Source: Escherichia coli
GTDB lineage: Bacteria; Pseudomonadota; Gammaproteobacteria; Enterobacterales; Enterobacteriaceae
Assembly: GCF_045037415.1 (NCBI RefSeq)
Contig: NZ_CP173440.1
Reading direction: 5' to 3' (one strand)
DNA: 64,000 nucleotides
Shown here: positions 3,959 through 64,000 of the stretch, one piece after another
How the letters are laid out: each line of letters opens with the position of its first letter
Numbering within the stretch: the first letter of the stretch is position 1
The notes under the pieces: generated by a model
What the model was told of the DNA's origin: nothing
What the model saw: only the letters and a program-made list of their open reading frames with translations
The model's database searches: none
Made by a program: the position numbers and the translations under genes

Positions 3959-4300
3959 ATGGGATTAATCAGAACAGTGGTATACGTGGGTATCATTGGA
4001 GGCATCTTTGCCTATACACAAACAAAAGATAGCCTTGAAAATATTTCGGTTCCGGATGCGGAGTTTCCATCGTCAATCTCCAGGAATAACTTTATACAAT
4101 CGACATGGGTGAACGAGCATTACACTTCACTGAAGAATGGCCCGATTGCTGACGGTATATCCAGTATTCTGGATGATGCTCAGGATATCAGGGGGTCTGT
4201 CAATAATGTTGTCATGACGGCCGGTAATGTCGATATCCAGAAGGCTATTCAGGATGCAGTGGATGAACTAGACAGCAATAGCCGTAAATCCAGTAAGTAA
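3959..4300 (+). CDS. hypothetical protein with N-terminal transmembrane helix
   Basis: ORF in an operon-like array with the Dsb genes; hydrophobic N-terminus. Confidence 0.35.
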   Translation: MGLIRTVVYVGIIGGIFAYTQTKDSLENISVPDAEFPSSISRNNFIQSTWVNEHYTSLKNGPIADGISSILDDAQDIRGSVNNVVMTAGNVDIQKAIQDAVDELDSNSRKSSK

Positions 4301-4359: not shown

Positions 4360-5316
4360 ATGGAAAATAAACAAAGCACTAAAAAACAAACTCTGATTCA
4401 CATCGCCTTGGTAGTAGGTGGTTTTGTTGCTGGTTCGGTAATTTGGGGGAATGGCAGTAATATTATGAACTCAAATGACTCGGCTAATGAGTCTGTCAAA
4501 AAACAGCAAATCGAACTGGCAAATAGATTCAATGCATTAGCTCAAACAGCGAACCAGGTAAATAAGCCAGCCGGTTTAGTCCTGACTGAGCAGGACAAGG
4601 AACTTATTGGAAAAACTGCGGCACAGTATTTGATCGAACATCCAGAGAACCTGGTGGAAGCTGGTAAGCGCCTTGAAGCCAACCGAGATGGTGAAAAAAC
4701 CTCAGACGTTGTGAATACAAAAGACGTATTGCTTGAAACAAAATTCACGCCAAACTACGGCCCAGATAACGCAGATGTAGCTGTTATTGAATTTTTCGAT
4801 TACATGTGTCATTTCTGTCAGCAGTCCAGTCCCGTGCTTGAAAAGGCGATTGCAGAAAATAAAAATGTTCGGACTTTCTTTAAAGACTTCACCATTTTTG
4901 CTGACCGCACACCTATCTCCGGGATGGGGGCAAAAATTGGTCTCTACATCTTTAATAAGTACGGGCAGGAAAAATACTACGAGTTCCATAATAAGCTCAT
5001 GAGTGAAGCGGGTAGGGCAATGAAGGACAGGAAGGACTATACACCTTCTAATCTGGCGGCCCTGGTCAATGGTTTAGGATATAAAGAAATACTGGATCAG
5101 CAAGGTAACTTCTTGCTTACTGTCGAAATGCGCGATCAGCTTCAGAATGTTCTTGATGCAAATATGATGCTGGCGGATAAACTCAATTATAGCGGCACGC
5201 CAGTGTTTATTGTTATGAACATGAAGAACCCGCAAAACAAAACCACAACCATTATGCCCGGTGCGCCTGATTTTTATCGCTTGCAACAGGCAATTGATAA
5301 GGCAAAAGGGAACTAA
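4360..5316 (+). CDS. membrane-anchored thioredoxin-fold thiol-disulfide oxidoreductase (DsbA/DsbG-like)
   Basis: N-terminal TM helix; CHFC (CxxC) motif in the sequence FFDYMCHFCQ. Confidence 0.5.
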   Translation: MENKQSTKKQTLIHIALVVGGFVAGSVIWGNGSNIMNSNDSANESVKKQQIELANRFNALAQTANQVNKPAGLVLTEQDKELIGKTAAQYLIEHPENLVEAGKRLEANRDGEKTSDVVNTKDVLLETKFTPNYGPDNADVAVIEFFDYMCHFCQQSSPVLEKAIAENKNVRTFFKDFTIFADRTPISGMGAKIGLYIFNKYGQEKYYEFHNKLMSEAGRAMKDRKDYTPSNLAALVNGLGYKEILDQQGNFLLTVEMRDQLQNVLDANMMLADKLNYSGTPVFIVMNMKNPQNKTTTIMPGAPDFYRLQQAIDKAKGN

Positions 5317-5413
5317 ACATAGCCCTCCCTTACATAGAAATATAAGCGGAGTGTTTAATTCATTGGCAAAATTCTAGGAGTATGTATGTCGGAGGCTTTC
5401 TTGACAGTTTTCG

Positions 5414-6502
5414 TTGGTGGCGTCGTTTTTGCTGACGTTGTTAGTGTTTAGCGTCATACGAGTACGTAAATGGAAATGCGTCAAAGAAACACTAGCTATA
5501 GTATCTTTTGTATACTTACTTAACTTTATAAAAGGTTACCTGAAAATGAACACCAATGTACATCATGTCCAAGAAAATTTTTATATATCATTGCAGGATT
5601 GTATAAATAAAGAAGAGAAAACAAAAAAAACATGCATTGAGTACTGGCGACGTGAAGCTGAGAGGGCGAAGGAAGAAAGCGCAAGACGTAGAGCACTGTC
5701 TATAAAGATAATTACCGAAAAAAGCATGATTCTTGAAACGTTATTTCTAAATATACAAAAAACAAATGCGCTCAAAGAACAGTATGAAAGAAACCTGATA
5801 GCTAAATGGGGTGGCGTTATTGATGACGATAAGACAAAGGATTATGGTATATTCCTCCCTAGTTTGGAACATTTATCTGCTTATGTATCATGTGCAAAGA
5901 ACGATGAATATAGCAGGGAAGTGCTTTATAACAGACCCGAATTATCAAGGGGTATCAAGTATGACAATAGTTATTACTGCCCGCAGGAAAAAAAATTCAT
6001 CTATATGAGGAATGACAAATTTCGTCCAGATCTTGAACTTCTGACAAATCCTCCTTATCCTGATTTTTGTAAGAATTTACTTTACTTTTATGTCAGGTCA
6101 TTTTCGCTGCATCTCAAAAAAGGAGAGCCTGGGAAACCATTGGAGATAGGTATTCGCAATTCAGTGAGCAAAAACACTTATGAAGACTTGTGTATAGGTC
6201 TGGAAATACTTATGCCATACATGTGCAAAACTGAAAGCGGCAAAGTGATTATTAATGATGAAGGATACTTATCATGTGATAGCTATTATAGAAGCATACT
6301 GGTTAACCCGAAAACAGGGGGGGCTGAGTTAGTTATATACAGAAAGGGGCGCTTTGACCATCGACAGAAACCGAATACACGAGAACCTCGTAAGTGGTTG
6401 AATGAAGATATAATAATTAAAGAATTTCCTAACATACGAATTGTTTTTCTATATATCATATCGTGTCGGTATCAGCAGCACTTCAAAAACAGGGATATAT
6501 AG
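5414..6502 (+). CDS. hypothetical protein
   Basis: Long ORF in low-GC DNA; start uncertain (in-frame ATGs at 5414 and 5546). No recognisable motif. Confidence 0.3.
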   Translation: MVASFLLTLLVFSVIRVRKWKCVKETLAIVSFVYLLNFIKGYLKMNTNVHHVQENFYISLQDCINKEEKTKKTCIEYWRREAERAKEESARRRALSIKIITEKSMILETLFLNIQKTNALKEQYERNLIAKWGGVIDDDKTKDYGIFLPSLEHLSAYVSCAKNDEYSREVLYNRPELSRGIKYDNSYYCPQEKKFIYMRNDKFRPDLELLTNPPYPDFCKNLLYFYVRSFSLHLKKGEPGKPLEIGIRNSVSKNTYEDLCIGLEILMPYMCKTESGKVIINDEGYLSCDSYYRSILVNPKTGGAELVIYRKGRFDHRQKPNTREPRKWLNEDIIIKEFPNIRIVFLYIISCRYQQHFKNRDI

Positions 6503-6607
6503 TAAATGCCTCGTAAAACGTGACCCAGTGGGCATGGAGATAATGAGGTTAATAATAAATGAATTTTACATTTGAACGATGTAAATTTCACTAAACATTA
6601 AATATTT

Positions 6608-7135
6608 ATGGCGGTTTCTATGTTCGAACATAACATTGCTTTTAACGGCATGATGATTGTGATTGTTATCTTATCTTATCTGCTATTTAAAAGTCTTAAG
6701 TCAAAGAAAAGGCTTCAGCATAAGTATGATGAGGTGTTTAAGGCTTTTCATATTGCGAATTCAGAGTACACCGGCGGCCTAAAAGAAGTTTACAAAAACT
6801 TATCTTTAAGCAATGCTCAGTTGCAGTTCCTTGCTGTTTACTTAAATCAAGACACTGTCCAGTTTGATGGCAGAAATATTGTGTGCGAAAAAGAGGATGA
6901 TGTTCAGTATATTCTTTCACTTATATCAGACAGCCATTTTTGGTTGGACAAATCCATGAAAGGAATAAATGAAGTGGTAAATAATACGGACGTAATAAAA
7001 GATATTAAATTATCTCTATCACCGTTCGCTTCGTTGGGTGAGCTGAATGTTATAGATGATGAGTTTAAACTGAAAAATAAAGAGTTTGATGGGTTTGCTA
7101 AACTTAAAGTTAAGTATGATGTAAAAAGGGGGTGA
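6608..7135 (+). CDS. hypothetical membrane-anchored protein
   Basis: ORF with N-terminal hydrophobic segment; stop overlaps the start of the next ORF. Confidence 0.35.
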   Translation: MAVSMFEHNIAFNGMMIVIVILSYLLFKSLKSKKRLQHKYDEVFKAFHIANSEYTGGLKEVYKNLSLSNAQLQFLAVYLNQDTVQFDGRNIVCEKEDDVQYILSLISDSHFWLDKSMKGINEVVNNTDVIKDIKLSLSPFASLGELNVIDDEFKLKNKEFDGFAKLKVKYDVKRG

Positions 7136-7740
7136 AAATGGCAGGGGCATTGTTTTCACTTTCTGCTGGTGGGGTGATGTTTGCAACAGCTGTTGTTATT
7201 ATCATCTTTAGTGCTATGCTATATGACAGTATAGTTAAAAGACGTTCTAAAAATATTAACCCACCAGAGTTTACAGGATCACCTCAACTAGCATCTTGCA
7301 ATTGTTCAGGTGGTACTGTCCTGCTTTATCTTGATTTTGATGGAGTCCTCCATCGAAGGATGAATGAGACATTTGAAAGAATGCCTCTACTGGAAAAAAT
7401 TTTAAAACAATGTCCAGAATTACATATAGTCGTGTCCAGCAGTTGGAGGGAAACAATGACTTTAGAAGGGCTTAAATACCTTTTTCCAGTAGCATTCAGA
7501 CACAGAATAATAGGTGTTACACCTTCACTTCAGGAAGTAAAGGATACCGAATATGTTCGGTACAGAGAGTGCCTTTTACATGCCAGACATATGGGGGTCA
7601 ACAAGTTTATTATCATTGATGATGAATCACACCGTTTTCCACCTGGGTGCGAAAATCTGGTGTCAACGAATTACAGTGAGGGGATGACTGACCAAACAGT
7701 AGCATCTGTCATTATGAAATATTGTCAGTACTTAACATGA
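7132..7740 (+). CDS. membrane-anchored HAD-like hydrolase-family protein
   Basis: ATGA start/stop overlap with the upstream ORF; LYLDFDGVLH resembles HAD motif I (DxDG). Confidence 0.4.
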   Translation: MKMAGALFSLSAGGVMFATAVVIIIFSAMLYDSIVKRRSKNINPPEFTGSPQLASCNCSGGTVLLYLDFDGVLHRRMNETFERMPLLEKILKQCPELHIVVSSSWRETMTLEGLKYLFPVAFRHRIIGVTPSLQEVKDTEYVRYRECLLHARHMGVNKFIIIDDESHRFPPGCENLVSTNYSEGMTDQTVASVIMKYCQYLT

Positions 7741-24329: not shown

Positions 24330-24348
24330 AACGTTATAACATAACATT
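24330..24348. promoter_or_regulatory. Zur-box-like operator upstream of the dksA2-like operon
   Basis: AACGTTATAACATAACATT (reverse complement AATGTTATGTTATAACGTT), about 29 bp upstream of the start codon. Confidence 0.55.
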
Positions 24349-24371
24349 AACTGCCGCTGCAAAATAACCTG

Positions 24372-25571
24372 TTAAGCCAGCCGGGCCACTTTCGTGGGCC
24401 AGGGATCGTGGAAAATCCCCCCCTGCTGCCACCAGAGAATTTCCTCTTCAGTGAGTAAACACTGGCGCAATGCGAGGGCAAAATCGTCAATTTCGCCGCT
24501 CTCGCCAATAACAGTCAGGCGGCAGCGCCGGTCACCAAATCTGCCAGGCATTTTTGCCAGTTGCTGACGGATAGCTGCGCGTTCTTCCTTTGTCAATGAA
24601 TTATCAGTGTGAGTCAGGACCCCGGCTTTCCAGTAGCTTATGAATTCGAGATTGATGCTCCCTGCTGCCTGGTTCCACAATAATGCCAGGTCATCCCTTC
24701 CCGGTAGCCAGAAAAACCCCTTGCTGCGGTAAACGCCTGCGCCCATGAAGCGATGGCAGGTATCCCACAGCCGCTGCGGATGAAATGGACGGTCATCCTC
24801 AATGACCCTCCACGAAATATCGTATTTTTTATCGGTTTCATCCGGCAAAACTGCGTCAATGGCATCCTGAAGCTCATCGATAAGTAACGCCACCCGATGA
24901 AAATCGTAATCCGGCATGGAAAGCAATTCATCCAGCTGTAAATTTCCCCAGGGCACGGCCATAATTGCAACCTGGGGATTAAGGGGATGTATGGCTCTGG
25001 CTACCTCAGTAACCACATAGAAGGGTAACCGGTCGTTTTTGGTTAATAAGAGCTTATTACAGAACATAATCTGTTCTGCCAGCAGGCTTTCCACTCCCCG
25101 GGTTCCTTTATTGAGGTGCTCCTGGAAAACCGGAATAAGCTTCTTTCCACCGTCGTAGTCATCATTAAGCATGACCGTATCAACAAGAGACAAAAATGCT
25201 TTGAGACTTACCTGGGTATGTTCTCGCAGATAGCGGACCAGGGGAAGAGGATGGCTGCTACCTGAGGTTTCCAGTAAAATAAAATCCGCAGACCGTTTTT
25301 CGAGCAGGTTTTTCAGCGCGGAATCCAGCTTCTGGATCCCGCTTCTGCTGCTGATACTGTCTGCTGAAATACTCACAAAATTGTTACTGGCTGCATCAAC
25401 GATTTCTGTGTTGGCTATCAGGACGCCATCCACATCAAGTTCACTCATGTCATTAACGATGACGGATACAGTCATTCGCCGTTTGTGTGCCTGTGTAAGA
25501 AGGTTTTTTAGCAGAGTAGTTTTCCCTGCCCCCAGAAAACCATTAAGGATAATGAGCGGTGTTCTTTTCAT
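24372..25571 (-). CDS. COG0523 (CobW/ZigA/YeiR-like) GTPase paralog with SxSA in place of the CxCC motif
   Basis: P-loop [11 protein letters not shown]. Where family members have GCICC this protein has VSISADS. Start set at MKRTPL. Confidence 0.8.
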   Translation of the reverse strand: MKRTPLIILNGFLGAGKTTLLKNLLTQAHKRRMTVSVIVNDMSELDVDGVLIANTEIVDAASNNFVSISADSISSRSGIQKLDSALKNLLEKRSADFILLETSGSSHPLPLVRYLREHTQVSLKAFLSLVDTVMLNDDYDGGKKLIPVFQEHLNKGTRGVESLLAEQIMFCNKLLLTKNDRLPFYVVTEVARAIHPLNPQVAIMAVPWGNLQLDELLSMPDYDFHRVALLIDELQDAIDAVLPDETDKKYDISWRVIEDDRPFHPQRLWDTCHRFMGAGVYRSKGFFWLPGRDDLALLWNQAAGSINLEFISYWKAGVLTHTDNSLTKEERAAIRQQLAKMPGRFGDRRCRLTVIGESGEIDDFALALRQCLLTEEEILWWQQGGIFHDPWPTKVARLA

Positions 25572-25668
25572 AGCATCCAGCCTTATGCCGCTAAACGTTA
25601 ATGCAATCAAGTTGCAATAATACCGGCTTCCTGCCAAAATTCAAATGACATGACTCGGAGGGGGAAAT

Positions 25669-26121
25669 ATGACAACACCAGTAGCCAAAACGTATGACTG
25701 GAAGCAAACGTTGCGCACACATGGTTTGCGGGCAACGCCATCCACCCTTGCTACACTGCAGTGCCTTGAACATGCCAGCCAGGCCATGAGCCATGACGAT
25801 TTAACTCAGCAACTGGGCGAGCAGGCTCCCGATCGTGTGACCCTTTACCGAATACTGGAACGGCTAATGCAGGTCAGTATTGTCCAGCGTTATACCGACT
25901 CGGCAAGAACTCAGCGTTTCGCTCTGACCCAACGGGCTGCCGTAGGACTTTTTGAATGCGATAACTGCCATCATGTTATTCCTATTGAGCAGGATCCAGC
26001 CCTGGAAGCGGCCATTGAATTGGTAAAATCACATCTCACTGGACATGGTATGACCGAACGGGAAATTACCCTTTCCAGTCATGGTATCTGTCCGGACTGT
26101 AATCGTACTATCACCAAATAA
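25669..26121 (+). CDS. zur: Fur-family metalloregulator, probable Zur
   Basis: CDNCHH…CPDC motifs of the Fur family; divergent from a COG0523 gene and co-directional with the CysRS paralog. Confidence 0.7.
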   Translation: MTTPVAKTYDWKQTLRTHGLRATPSTLATLQCLEHASQAMSHDDLTQQLGEQAPDRVTLYRILERLMQVSIVQRYTDSARTQRFALTQRAAVGLFECDNCHHVIPIEQDPALEAAIELVKSHLTGHGMTEREITLSSHGICPDCNRTITK

Positions 26122-32393: not shown

Positions 32394-32411
32394 ATGTTAC
32401 GTTATAACATA
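32394..32411. promoter_or_regulatory. Zur-box-like operator
   Basis: ATGTTACGTTATAACATA, 13 bp upstream of the hisI-like start, in the divergent region with a Fur-family regulator gene. Confidence 0.55.
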
Positions 32412-32519
32412 TCAAACATAATTGCCAGTTATCACGATTTCACAGGCACTGTACTTCTTGGGTAACATCTGACCGGAAAAAGAAACAAAGCAAATGTGAT
32501 AGAGGCAGCAGGAGGCAAG

Positions 32520-52376: not shown

Positions 52377-53039
52377 GTGCAATCAATGAGTAATACTGAT
52401 AACGGGACGAAGATCTACACTCCATTAACTCTGAAACTATATGACTGGTGGGTGCTTTGCATTTCGAATAGTTACGCATGGAATTGTTCAACAAAGGATA
52501 TTTTAATTCCTTATTTTTTACAAAACTTAAGTCCTAACCACCTAGATATTGGCGTTGGTACTGGTTATTATCTCACTAAAATCCCTGCTCACTATAATAT
52601 ATCCCTCATGGATCTTAACCCTGCCAGCTTGAAAGCTGCATCGGCAAGAGTAGGGGAAGATAGAATACACTATAAAGTTAGGCATGATGTATTTGAATCT
52701 TACCCAGAGGAACTTCATGGAAAATTTGATTCCATATCAATGTATTACCTCATCCATTGTCTACCAGGAACAATGGAAGATAAAAGAATTGTCATAAAAA
52801 ACGCGAAGGCCGCCTTAACTAAAGGTGGAATACTTTACGGAGCAACCATACTTGGTGATAAGGTAAGGCATAATAGTTTTGCGTTAAAACTGTTGCAAAT
52901 TTATAACAAAAAAGGTATTTTTTCTAATTTTAGTGATTCAGAAGAAGAACTAAAAAAAATGCTTTCTCATTATTTTAAAAATATTGATGTCATTGTGAAA
53001 GGTGCTGTCGCAATGTTCTCTGCGCATGGAAAAAAATAG
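52377..53039 (+). CDS. class I SAM-dependent methyltransferase
   Basis: DIGVGTGYY (motif I). Paralog of the ORF at 61472..62179. Confidence 0.55.
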   Translation: MQSMSNTDNGTKIYTPLTLKLYDWWVLCISNSYAWNCSTKDILIPYFLQNLSPNHLDIGVGTGYYLTKIPAHYNISLMDLNPASLKAASARVGEDRIHYKVRHDVFESYPEELHGKFDSISMYYLIHCLPGTMEDKRIVIKNAKAALTKGGILYGATILGDKVRHNSFALKLLQIYNKKGIFSNFSDSEEELKKMLSHYFKNIDVIVKGAVAMFSAHGKK

Positions 53040-56276: not shown

Positions 56277-57332
56277 GGCTTTGTTGAATAAATAAGATTT
56301 CGTGCGAACGACCCTGTAGCTGGCTGGATTTTCAGGCAATACGCACGCTTTCTGGCATCCCAGCCTTTGTCATCCTGTTCAACGCACGCACCATGGCCAT
56401 AGCTTCCGCTACCTGACCATCGTAGTCACGCAGCGTCAGTGAATCTCCCAACAACTGCTTCATTCTGTACATTGCCGTTTCCGCTATCGAGCGACGGTTA
56501 TATTCCGTTGTCCATTTCCACCGTGCATTGCTTCCGCTCAGCCGCTGATTAGCAACGGCACGGTTGCGGTCTGCGTACTCACCGGGCCAGTAACCTGCTC
56601 CTTTTCGGGGAGGAATAAGCGCGCTGATTTTTTTGCGGCGCATTTCATCGTGACAAAGCCGTGTATCGTAAGCCCCGTCTGCCGCGGCTGCCCTGATTTT
56701 TCTGTGAGTCTGCCGGATAAGGCCCGGGAAGGCTTCTGAGTCCGTGACGTTATTCAGCGACAGGTCTGCACAGACAACTTCATGTGTGTTGCTGTCAACA
56801 GCAAGATGCAACTTTCGCCAGATACGACGGCGCTCTTTGCCGTGCTTTCTGACTTTCCATTCGCCTTCACCAAAGACCTTCAGCCCGGTGGAATCAATCA
56901 CCAGGTGTGCGATTTCACCCCGGGTGGACGTTTTGAAACTGACATTAACCGACTTTGCCCGCTTACTGACACTGGTGTAATCCGGGCAGCGCAACGGAAC
57001 GTTCATCAGGGCAAAAATGGAATCAATAAAACCCTGCGCAGCCCGCAGGGTCAGCCGGAATACGCGTTTAATCACCAGAACGGTGGTGATGGCGAGATCA
57101 GAATAGCGCTGGGGCCTTCCTCGTGATGAAGGCGTTGCCGACTCATACCAGGCCTGAATCGCCTCATCATCCAGCCAGAAAGTGAGGGAGCCACGGTTGA
57201 TGAGAGCTTTGTTGTAAGTGGACCAGTTGGTGATTCTGAACTTTTGCTTTGCCACGGAATGGTCTGAGTTGTCGGGAGGATGCGTGATCTGATCCTTCAA
57301 CTCAGCAAAAGTTCGATTTATTCAACAAAGCC
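56277..57332 (-). mobile_element. IS903 (IS5 family), 1056 bp, no target-site duplication
   Basis: Terminal inverted repeats GGCTTTGTTGAATAAAT at both ends; flanking 9-mers differ. Confidence 0.95.
56332..57300 (-). CDS. IS903 transposase
   Basis: Near-identical to IS903/IS102 transposase (…KFRITNWSTYNKALINRGSLTFWLDDEAIQAWY…). Confidence 0.95.
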   Translation of the reverse strand: MKDQITHPPDNSDHSVAKQKFRITNWSTYNKALINRGSLTFWLDDEAIQAWYESATPSSRGRPQRYSDLAITTVLVIKRVFRLTLRAAQGFIDSIFALMNVPLRCPDYTSVSKRAKSVNVSFKTSTRGEIAHLVIDSTGLKVFGEGEWKVRKHGKERRRIWRKLHLAVDSNTHEVVCADLSLNNVTDSEAFPGLIRQTHRKIRAAAADGAYDTRLCHDEMRRKKISALIPPRKGAGYWPGEYADRNRAVANQRLSGSNARWKWTTEYNRRSIAETAMYRMKQLLGDSLTLRDYDGQVAEAMAMVRALNRMTKAGMPESVRIA

Positions 57333-57543: not shown

Positions 57544-57561
57544 TTGTTATGTTATAACATT
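57544..57561. promoter_or_regulatory. Zur-box-like operator
   Basis: TTGTTATGTTATAACATT, the best match to the window consensus. Confidence 0.55.
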
Positions 57562-57565
57562 AAAT

Positions 57566-60809: not shown

Positions 60810-61129
60810 AGAATATGGGCGATTACTCGCCGGGCCTCCTGTAATTTTCAAGCGATGTTATGAAACGATGGTAATCTAACTGATGGTTTGAGCGTGCCAT
60901 GTAAGTAAAGAAGAACTGGCAAACCTTAATGTTGCATTATATCATAACAAATGATAAGTGAGGCCCAATGTTTCTCTTACTGGTCGTGCTCCCAAGCATG
61001 CCTTTGGCGAAAAGGTTAGACCTCAGGCTGCGTTCAGCAACTACATGATATCTGTCTGGATTGTGACGGAGATGCGGTACTACTGCTTGTGGTTCAAAAA
61101 GGTGAAGCCTGCCACACAAGTCGGCGGAG

Positions 61130-61552
61130 TTGTTTTTACAACGCTACCGCCGGCCTTTTCATCCGACCCGTTTCTGGCAGGTGATGGAAAATGAGCTGGA
61201 TGAAGTCGTCAGATCAAAAGGTTACTTCTGGCTGGCCAGCCGTCCGGAATTCGCAGGTTCATGGTCACAGGCTGGTGGCATTGCGCGCCAGGCGCTGGGG
61301 GGCATGTGGTGGGCGAGTGTGCCGAAAGAACGTTGGCTAGAGGATGCTGAGTCACTGAAGTTCATCATGTCTAACTGGATAGATGGCATTGGTGATGCCC
61401 GTCAGGAACTCGTTTTTATTGGAATGGATATGAATGAATCAAAACTGCGCAACAGACTGGATTCCGCCCTGTTAACGGATGCAGAAATGGCTGAAGGGCC
61501 TCAAAATTGGCGGCATTATCCCGATCCTGTTGAGCCTTGGTTCGAAGAATGA
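61130..61552 (+). pseudogene. C-terminal fragment of a COG0523 gene (about 95% identical to the C-terminus of the 30714..31937 product)
   Basis: …[18 protein letters not shown]…PVEPWFEE aligns to the C-terminus of the 30714..31937 protein; no N-terminal GTPase domain. Confidence 0.6.
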
Positions 61553-62179
61553 ATCGAAGGCACCCGTATTTGTCGGGTGCCTTCGTATGAGGGCGAAAAA
61601 GGGGCCATTTTTTAGCCCTTCTTCAGAATCACTCATATTAGAAAAAATACCTTTGTGATTATAAATCCTCATTAGTTTTGATGTGAAACTATTATGCATT
61701 ACCCCATCGCCAAGTATGGTTGCCCCGTAAAGTATTCCGTCCTTAGTTAAAGCAGCTTTCACGTTTTTTATGACAACACCTTTATCCACCATCGCCCCAG
61801 GAAGACAATGTAAGAGATAATACATTGATATAGAATCGAATTTACCATGTAGTTCCTCTGGATAAGATTCAAATACATTATGCTGAACTTCATACCGTAT
61901 TCTGGCTTTCCCTATCCTTGCTGATGCCGTTTTCAAACTAGCCTTATTGAGATCCATAAGTGAGATATTGTAATTTGCAGGAGCTTTGGCAAGATAATAC
62001 CCAGTTCCAACGCCAATATCTAAATGGTTAGGTCTTAAATTTTGTAAAAAATAAGGGAGCAAAATCTCTTTTGTCGGACAATGCCAAGCGTAACTGTTGG
62101 AAATGCTCAGCACCCACCAGTCATAAAGCTTCAAAGTGAATGGTGTGTAGATCTTCGTTCCTTCATCAACATTACTCAT
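61472..62179 (-). CDS. class I SAM-dependent methyltransferase paralog; 3' end altered by a junction with the COG0523 fragment
   Basis: Matches the 52377..53039 product for about 190 aa (…DIGVGTGYY…) and then diverges into sequence antisense to the COG0523 fragment. Confidence 0.45.
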   Translation of the reverse strand: MSNVDEGTKIYTPFTLKLYDWWVLSISNSYAWHCPTKEILLPYFLQNLRPNHLDIGVGTGYYLAKAPANYNISLMDLNKASLKTASARIGKARIRYEVQHNVFESYPEELHGKFDSISMYYLLHCLPGAMVDKGVVIKNVKAALTKDGILYGATILGDGVMHNSFTSKLMRIYNHKGIFSNMSDSEEGLKNGPFFALIRRHPTNTGAFDSFFEPRLNRIGIMPPILRPFSHFCIR

Positions 62180-62404
62180 TAGTTATACCTTGCAACAGTC
62201 AATGTGGATAAGCAGAGCATATAGCAATATGCTCAATATCTCCTTTCTATTTTATCACGATTTTTTCCACTACTTACCAAGATTTACAACAAACAACATA
62301 TTATTGCAATGCATTGCCATTTTGTTCACATACTTGGCAATTTATAAGTATATTGCATAAATATAAAGTTGACTTTTAGAGTTCTTTTTTGTAGATAAAC
62401 TCTC

Positions 62405-62540
62405 ATGGAAATATGGAAATATGGAAATATGGAAATATGGAAATATGGAAATATGGAAATATGGAAATATGGAAATATGGAAATATGGAAATATGGAAAT
62501 ATGGAAATATGGAAATATGGAAATATGGAAATATGGAAAT
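62405..62540. repeat. 17 perfect tandem copies of the 8-bp unit ATGGAAAT
   Basis: 136 bp of uninterrupted ATGGAAAT repeats in the intergenic region. Confidence 0.95.
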
Positions 62541-62665
62541 GAGGTAAGAAACAGAAGACTATAAAATTTGAAGTCAAAAATGGTAACTGAGCTCCTCCTC
62601 GTTTGGGTGCTTAGGAGATATAACTAGTGGAGAATGAAATATAACTATTACTGCAAAATAACCTG

Positions 62666-63865
62666 TTAAGCCAGCCGGGCCACTTTCGTGGGCCAGGGAT
62701 CGTGGAAAATCCCCCCCTGCTGCCACCAGAGAATTTCCTCTTCAGTGAGTAAACACTGGCGCAATGCGAGGGCAAAATCGTCAATTTCGCCGCTCTCGCC
62801 AATAACAGTCAGGCGGCAGCGCCGGTCACCAAATCTGCCCGGCATTTTTGCCAGTTGCTGACGGATAGCTGCGCGTTCTTCCTTTGTCAATGAATTATCA
62901 GTGTGAGTCAGGACCCCGGCTTTCCAGTAGCTTATGAATTCGAGATTGATGCTCCCTGCTGCCTGGTTCCACAATAATGCCAGGTCATCCCTTCCCGGTA
63001 GCCAGAAAAAACCCTTGCTGCGGTAAACGCCTGCGCCCATGAAGCGATGGCAGGTATCCCACAGCCGCTGCGGATGAAATGGGCGGTCATCCTCAATGAC
63101 CCGCCACGAAATATCATATTTTTTGTCGGGTTCATCCGACAAAACTGCATCAATTGCATCCTGAAGCTCATCGATAAGTAACGCCACCCGATGAAAATCG
63201 TAATCCGGCATGGAAAGCAATTCATCCAGCTGTAAATTTCCCCAGGGCACGGCCATAATTGCAACCTGCGGATTAAGGGGATGTATGGCTCTGGCTACCT
63301 CAGTAACAACATAGAAGGGTAATCTGTCGTTTTTGGTTAACAAGAGCTTATTACAGAACATAATCTGTTCTGCCAGCAGGCTTTCCACTCCCCGGGTCCC
63401 TCTGTTGAGGTGCTCCTGGAAAACCGGAATAAGTTTCTTTCCACCGTCGTAGTCATCATTAAGCATGACCGTATCTACAAGCGACAAAAATGCTTTAAGA
63501 CTTACCTGGGGGTGTTCTCGCAGATAGCGGACCAGGGGAAGAGGATGGCTGCTGCCTGACGTTTCCAGTAAAATAAAATCCGGAGACCGTTTTTCGAGCA
63601 GGTTTTTCAGCGCGGAATCCAGCTTCTGGATCCCACTTCTGCTGCTGATACTGTCTGCTGAAATACTCACAAAATTGTTACTGGCTGCATCAACGATTTC
63701 TGTGTTGGCTATCAGGACGCCATCCACATCAAGTTCACTCATGTCATTAACGATGACGGATACAGCCATTCGCCGTTTGTGTGCCTGTGTAAGAAGGTTT
63801 TTTAGCAGAGTAGTTTTTCCTGCTCCCAGAAAACCATTAAGGATAATGAGCGGTGTTCTTTTCAT
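62666..63865 (-). CDS. second copy of the SxSA-type COG0523 GTPase paralog
   Basis: Protein differs from the 24372..25571 product at only a handful of positions; DNA identity begins right after the stop codon (24357 / 62652). Confidence 0.8.
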   Translation of the reverse strand: MKRTPLIILNGFLGAGKTTLLKNLLTQAHKRRMAVSVIVNDMSELDVDGVLIANTEIVDAASNNFVSISADSISSRSGIQKLDSALKNLLEKRSPDFILLETSGSSHPLPLVRYLREHPQVSLKAFLSLVDTVMLNDDYDGGKKLIPVFQEHLNRGTRGVESLLAEQIMFCNKLLLTKNDRLPFYVVTEVARAIHPLNPQVAIMAVPWGNLQLDELLSMPDYDFHRVALLIDELQDAIDAVLSDEPDKKYDISWRVIEDDRPFHPQRLWDTCHRFMGAGVYRSKGFFWLPGRDDLALLWNQAAGSINLEFISYWKAGVLTHTDNSLTKEERAAIRQQLAKMPGRFGDRRCRLTVIGESGEIDDFALALRQCLLTEEEILWWQQGGIFHDPWPTKVARLA

Positions 63866-63961
63866 AGCATCCAGCCTTATGCCGCTAAACGTTAATGCAA
63901 TCAAGTTGCAATAATACCGGCTTCCTGCCAGAATTCAAATGACATGACTCGGAGGGGGAAA

Positions 63962-64000
63962 TATGGCAACACCAGTAGCCAAAACGTATGACTGGAAGCA
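63962..64000 (+). CDS. zur: second copy of the Zur-like regulator gene, 5' end only (runs off the window)
   Basis: ATGGCAACACCAGTAGCCAAAACGTATGACTGGAAGCA matches the start of the 25669 gene with one substitution. Confidence 0.55.

Follow-up and report, generated by a model that had tools for sequence, protein, structure and literature searches.

The window, by which we mean the whole 64-kb stretch of DNA that was analysed, carries two genes on the minus strand, one for a class I SAM-dependent methyltransferase and one for a GTPase of the COG0523/CobW family, and between them lies an array of 17.0 perfect copies of the octanucleotide ATGGAAAT (62405..62540, period 8, 136 bp; Table 1). Direct reading and Tandem Repeats Finder agree on it, the program reporting 100% matches, 0 indels, a score of 272 and the consensus ATGGAAAT, and the 17 units run without interruption from CTCTC on the left to GAGG on the right. 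The array is separated by 225 bp from the ATG of the methyltransferase (62179) and by 125 bp from the stop of the COG0523 gene, and the original prediction was right both in the perfect 17-copy array and in this geometry. All other tandem repeats that Tandem Repeats Finder detected in the window have at most 3.2 copies; the copy count of the array is so far above any of them that chance is excluded. When genome contigs were searched with three tandem units, all of the 14 stretches that came up belonged to unrelated taxa and not one to an enterobacterium, which leaves no related loci from this search. The sole match of an Rfam scan of 62100-62750 was below threshold, outside the array and due to chance (mir-33, 24 bits vs 50).

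The region is 99.9% identical to the plasmids named 'Vir' or 'pvir' in E. coli transconjugants and equally to hundreds of IncFIB/IncHI1B plasmids of K. pneumoniae, with iucABCD-iutA, rmpA/rmpA2, peg-344 and sil genes among the annotated neighbours. By these matches and neighbours the window belongs to a hypervirulent K. pneumoniae virulence plasmid of the pLVPK/pK2044 type (KpVP-1), and the locus is present on pLVPK itself (NC_005249.1). Plasmids of the pLVPK/pK2044 type define hypervirulent K. pneumoniae and are now spreading into carbapenem-resistant clones.

The methyltransferase gene is an altered one. Its last 27 codons have been swapped for 45 unrelated codons, which run into a zigA fragment on its opposite strand, and the resulting protein of 235 aa (WP_004213424.1) is chimeric. 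According to our comparison with homologues at 53-76% identity, nearly all of which are about 218 aa long, the lost segment is a block (LSxHFxxVxIxxxGxVALFSA) conserved across Enterobacterales and Pasteurellaceae, and because of this loss the 235-aa protein is probably crippled. Pfam recognises in it generic methyltransferase domains only, and an NCBIfam search found no specific family for it. A paralog is encoded at 52377..53039, with 80% identity at the DNA and 72% at the protein level.

A duplicate of the COG0523 gene exists in the window (62651-64000 vs 24357-25706, 97.6% identity), and the second copy still has its ancestral downstream neighbour. E. coli chromosomes, including O55:H7, carry the gene at 97.5% identity, without the array or the methyltransferase, so by these matches it is common to more than the plasmid. 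Segment 61147-61605 matches 31119-30661, which places an intact zigA elsewhere in the window and a 3' fragment of it at the array locus; segmental duplications and rearrangements are seen in the metal-homeostasis island of the window.

Table 1. Features at the array locus, in window coordinates
Feature	Position	Strand	Remarks
3' fragment of truncated zigA-type COG0523 gene	61147..61552	+	further sign of locus decay
Class I SAM-dependent methyltransferase ORF	61472..62179	-	residues 1-190 native, then 45 unrelated residues
Predicted methyltransferase promoter, TGAACA-17-AATAAT with TG extension, 9/12	62300..62328	-	consensus scan
Near-palindrome ATTGCAATG/CATTGCCAT	62303..62320		between the divergent predicted promoters; candidate operator
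Predicted sigma-70 promoter of the former oxidase operon, TTCACA-18-TATATT, 10/12	62325..62354	+	consensus scan; putative start
Left flank CTCTC	62400..62404	+	with GAG(G) on the right, stem of the ancestral hairpin CUCAU-GGAA-AUGAG
Octanucleotide VNTR, 17 perfect ATGGAAAT units	62405..62540		direct reading, Tandem Repeats Finder
Oxidase/DoxX operon leader remnant	62541..62640	+	corresponds to L002 4264-4363, 99% identical; ends at the former Shine-Dalgarno/ATG
Deletion junction	62632..62640		9-bp overlap of two homology blocks
Intact COG0523/CobW-family (ZigA-like) GTPase gene	62666..63865	-	stop 125 bp from the array

Variation of the array between plasmids

A 651-bp query across the array matched 693 plasmid records, and in the evenly spaced sample of them that was inspected the flanks were 100% identical, with the span varying from 539 to 715 bp in 8-bp steps. 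Overall, several hundred plasmids with the same flanks have 3 to 25 copies, with a median of 12. In the sequences that were fetched and counted there are 3 units in L004, 12 in L022, 13 in L021, 14 in L023, 17 in the window, L001 and L019, 18 in L020 and 25 in L003, all of them in perfect arrays between identical flanks. Three further samples of copy number were derived from the span of matches tied in score: the first gave 3-19 copies (n=51, median 12, SD 3.4), the second 5-19, and the third, which came by ranking ties from a synthetic two-unit query aimed at deleted-type alleles of 1-2 copies, 6-20, with 11 in pLVPK and 9 in the KCTC 2242 plasmid. Simpson diversity, calculated from the unbiased sample of 51 plasmids, is about 0.85.

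Each copy number from 3 to 20 is represented, with no favoured residue class modulo 3 and no favoured helical phase, and the distribution is smooth and unimodal around 12-14. Among about 180 sampled plasmids of the deleted type none has one or two copies. The repeat was originally predicted to be prone to slippage, and invariance of its number across isolates would have spoken against this; the number is clearly not invariant, and the 3 to 25 units, in multiples of 8 bp on fully identical flanks, bear the claim out. Head-to-tail copies of a short unit and whole-unit polymorphism between isolates on conserved flanks are the properties by which a variable-number tandem repeat (VNTR) is recognised, and the array has both.

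The third such property, mutation that outpaces the surrounding sequence, is also seen. According to PMC12198223, the clones TP6-1 to -3 and TP10-1 to -3 are siblings, taken at random among the transconjugants of single overnight matings. In each trio one of the three has 18 units and the other two have 17. TP6-1 (17) and TP6-3 (18) have no differences over 39,447 bp of flanks, and the lengths of the two complete plasmids are exactly 8 bp apart; some differences of one unit between hybrid assemblies could stem from errors in long-read assembly or polishing, which cannot be said of the overall range of copy numbers. Three ST11-type plasmids, with the array at a shared coordinate, have 12, 13 and 14 units and 0-2 mismatches in 40.3 kb of flanks. 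There are also stable sets, with 8 units in both J53-KPC_Vir-TC and -P15 and 14 units in J53-p130/131/133.

Ancestral state of the locus

The locus is intact in about 74 plasmids of other types, where the gene order is ABC transporter, zigA (+), methyltransferase (-), a divergent region of 331 bp, oxidase (+), DoxX (+), a further gene and COG0523 (-). The oxidase is an alpha-hydroxy-acid (lactate-type) oxidase, and its operon diverges from the methyltransferase. The ancestral state is a single unit: the intact locus reads ...AAACTCTC ATGGAAAT GAGGTAAG..., with the unit 105 bp upstream of the oxidase ATG. All 60 of the best-matching oxidase-intact plasmids, plasmid II of Kp52.145 included, show a one-unit span, and one unit is also found in a third arrangement, that of pKPN49_1 (L024). 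When the leader of the intact locus L002 is folded, the unit comes to lie at the apex of a small hairpin, CUCAU-GGAA-AUGAG (4250-4266). The same oxidase leader can form a second hairpin, between CUCCUCC and the GGAG proximal to the Shine-Dalgarno sequence, and this fold suggests a possible translational control of the oxidase.

When L002 is aligned with the window, its positions 4364-7364, which hold the oxidase, DoxX and the next gene, are found to be absent from the window, where the remnant of the operon leader stands directly against the right end of the array. Expansion of the array is fully associated with this deletion of the oxidase.

Possible functions of the array

A scan for promoter consensus sites found 8, against a shuffle expectation of 6.0, and all of them are to be taken as predictions. 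The two promoters listed in Table 1 are both kept in the intact locus L002 and fit a divergent pair; a weaker match on the minus strand (62586..62558) falls inside the dead leader. The array begins 76 bp upstream of the predicted -35 of the methyltransferase, the only plausible one for this gene, and about 45 nt downstream of the putative transcription start of the former oxidase operon. The predicted starts of the pair are near 62293 (-) and 62361 (+). The same scan predicts no promoter-like hexamer pair inside or spanning the array, and no further copy of the near-palindrome at 62303-62320 was found in the window.

The array was originally placed in a promoter, where its length would alter spacing or binding sites. 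The distance of 76 bp to the -35 and the lack of a hexamer pair inside the array do not support this placement, and it is weakened further by the position of the array in the relic leader of a deleted divergent operon and by the missing C-terminal block of the methyltransferase. There is a form of the idea which would still fit the predicted promoters, namely a contingency locus upstream of the promoter, similar to the TAAA tract of nadA in Neisseria meningitidis, in which the number of units would shift the distance or helical phase of the core promoter relative to DNA or bound proteins further upstream and so tune or switch the expression of the methyltransferase. The array is indeed hypermutable, it is upstream of the predicted promoter on the gene's own strand, and the lineage always keeps multi-copy arrays. 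We nevertheless regard such a locus as unlikely, for the array does not lie between the -35 and -10, beyond it there are only 100 bp of dead leader, followed by the 3' end of another gene, and no operator can be recognised there, the smooth distribution of copy numbers has no preferred phase classes, and the regulated enzyme may itself be inactive.

An action at the level of RNA would be conceivable in two ways. On the minus strand, (AUUUCCAU)n read through from COG0523 might serve as a rut or RNase E site, length-dependent in its effect, which would shield the methyltransferase from transcription coming from upstream; on the plus strand, an antisense RNA might extend into COG0523. Rho prefers unstructured, C-rich and G-poor RNA, and (AUUUCCAU)n is free of G, has 25% C and folds to 0 kcal/mol, and the interval from COG0523 to the methyltransferase has no predicted intrinsic terminator. 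As to the plus strand, the relic promoter with its 10/12 match is directed into the array and is predicted to read across it into the 3' end of COG0523 in the antisense sense; the plus-strand array RNA folds into a weak ladder only (-12.6 kcal/mol). We hold either variant to be rather improbable, since the argument is drawn wholly from the preference of Rho, the array is AU-rich and not C-rich, and the arrangement came from a deletion, so that a function is not required to account for it.

It would be harder still to see in the array a protein-binding site of the plasmid, similar to a centromere or an iteron and recognised by ribbon-helix-helix partition or regulator proteins. The regular 8-bp periodicity on a large low-copy plasmid would suit such a site, but related plasmids are stably maintained with one unit, the copy number is unconstrained (3-25), and the neighbours are metal-homeostasis genes and IS elements with no adjacent rep or par; we therefore reject this role as highly improbable.

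Just as little can be said for a repeat that codes for a peptide (FPYFHISI or MEIWKYGN) or for an artefact of sequencing or assembly. ORFs of 44-83 aa do cover the array, and at 18 copies or more PGAP annotates a 'hypothetical protein' over it (WP_226397293.1 and WP_159174225.1; L003 764-979 and L020 18088-18255). But the frame shifts with each 8-bp unit and all copy numbers occur, in every residue class modulo 3, so that no reading frame is preserved; moreover, each of the six frames meets a stop no more than about 80 nt from the array, there is no Shine-Dalgarno sequence, and none of the frames links the array to the methyltransferase or to COG0523. The ORF 62326..62577 (83 aa) is an artefact, just as it was originally taken to be, and so are the PGAP proteins over long alleles, which are translations of the repeat. 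The repeat lies neither inside a real ORF nor within a predicted core promoter between -35 and -10, and translational phase variation is excluded. An assembly artefact is contradicted by more than 500 independent complete plasmids which carry the array in clean multiples of 8 bp. Both the coding and the artefact reading are rejected.

Discussion

On the evidence presented we consider it probable that the array is a hypermutable octanucleotide VNTR, which expanded from one unit in relic non-coding DNA and is most likely neutral. We propose that a single ATGGAAAT unit, situated at the apex of the leader hairpin of the alpha-hydroxy-acid oxidase/DoxX operon, was amplified in tandem, and that this expansion took place in the KpVP-1 lineage, in which the oxidase operon has been deleted and the methyltransferase has lost its conserved C-terminus. 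The array would then gain and lose whole 8-bp units by slipped-strand mispairing in replication, much faster than substitutions arise in the local sequence. We infer slippage as the mechanism, and we take the changes in length to be most probably neutral to selection, since the DNA that holds the array is decaying and non-coding, and the array is outside any core promoter and any real ORF. As such, it may be considered as a clean example of a microsatellite born from a hairpin-apex unit after the DNA had been freed from function.

Simple neutrality does not explain why alleles of one or two units are absent; a bias towards expansion, limited time and selection are each a possible cause. Taken together with the unimodal distribution around 12-14 units, this absence among the roughly 180 plasmids could also point to selection for a multi-copy array rather than to pure drift, and the association of the expansion with the deletion could stem from a function as well as from shared ancestry. 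It might be suggested from this that the array is a contingency element or a rheostat, with its length tuning transcription across the interval between COG0523 and the methyltransferase, either by Rho loading or by upstream spacing, which we find quite doubtful. If it were so, selection would keep the array multi-copy, which would explain why alleles of one or two copies are not seen, and we would have an octanucleotide-repeat expression rheostat in Enterobacteriaceae, a family where, to our knowledge, repeat-based switching is uncommon.

The nearest relatives of the array, in our opinion, are the VNTR loci used for MLVA of Enterobacteriaceae, among which is the plasmid-borne STTR10pl on the virulence plasmid pSLT of Salmonella Typhimurium. 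The likeness extends to the short (6-9 bp) perfect head-to-tail repeat, the mostly non-coding position, the location on a virulence plasmid and the slippage between near-identical isolates; the unit and the locus are different, and the present array can be traced back to one unit within the leader of an operon that has since been lost. A literature search did not find the array in any MLVA scheme of K. pneumoniae. More generally, our searches (for the repeat itself, tandem repeats of pLVPK-type plasmids, zinc and COG0523, start-site maps, and phase variation by simple sequence repeats in Klebsiella) met with no description of the array, which is no proof of absence.

Repeats in promoters that cause variation of phase or level are represented by the TAAA repeat upstream of nadA, the poly-G/C tracts between -35 and -10 in Neisseria and the TA repeats of hifA-hifB in Haemophilus. 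Similar to these repeats, the array is hypermutable, upstream of a gene on the same strand and placed in an intergenic region common to divergent promoters. It differs in that it does not lie between -35 and -10 and belongs to the transcribed leader of a deleted divergent operon, and it is accompanied by a damaged downstream gene, with no recognised regulator site on its far side.

Plasmid arrays that bind proteins, for instance the parH boxes of TP228 with their 8-bp period and the heptad arrays bound by omega of pSM19035, share with our array the regular periodicity of 7-8 bp, the extent of roughly 100 bp and the plasmid location. Those arrays are degenerate, fixed in number and placed beside the genes of their binding proteins, whereas the ATGGAAAT array is perfect, hypervariable, reduced to one copy in related plasmids and without such a neighbour.

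The same virulence plasmid carries another repeat of this sort in the poly-G tract of rmpA/rmpA2, in which slippage occurs at high frequency and the resulting coding frameshift switches the mucoid phenotype (bioRxiv 10.1101/2025.09.12.675794); the ATGGAAAT array is not mentioned in that work. Both are simple repeats prone to slippage on the plasmid of hypervirulent K. pneumoniae, but the tract of rmpA is mononucleotide and coding, and the array is a non-coding octanucleotide.

The array makes a good strain marker and is probably not a gene switch. With about 20 alleles at one locus, its sizing by PCR could be a cheap means to distinguish otherwise identical virulence plasmids in studies of outbreaks and transfer. 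Some caution follows for the use of existing data. Arrays of 100-200 bp are at or beyond the length of short reads, so that assemblies built from such reads will be broken or collapsed at this place; long alleles attract spurious protein calls from annotation pipelines; and differences of 8 bp in length between 'identical' plasmids should not be taken as assembly errors or as a sign of independent origins.

Other features of the window

Next to an IS5 element (56332-57300), the segment 54689-56220 on the minus strand contains ORFs that are annotated in matching plasmids as Cas6/Cse3/CasE (type I-E) and as a DEAD/DEAH helicase, and by these annotations they look like CRISPR-Cas remnants; the tandem-repeat scan of the window detected no tandem array near them.

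Palindromes resembling the Zur box (TGTTATAWTATAACA, with at most 3 mismatches) were also sought in the window. None of them falls in the intergenic region of the array, so control of this region by Zur is not indicated. In the window as a whole there are 10 such sites against 1.8 expected, among them those at 24332, 27622, 32395-32414, 36538, 57545-57564 and 60930-60949, and the genes that lie downstream of them include those of the ABC transporter and the zigA copies. This enrichment suggests that the virulence plasmid may carry a zinc-starvation island.
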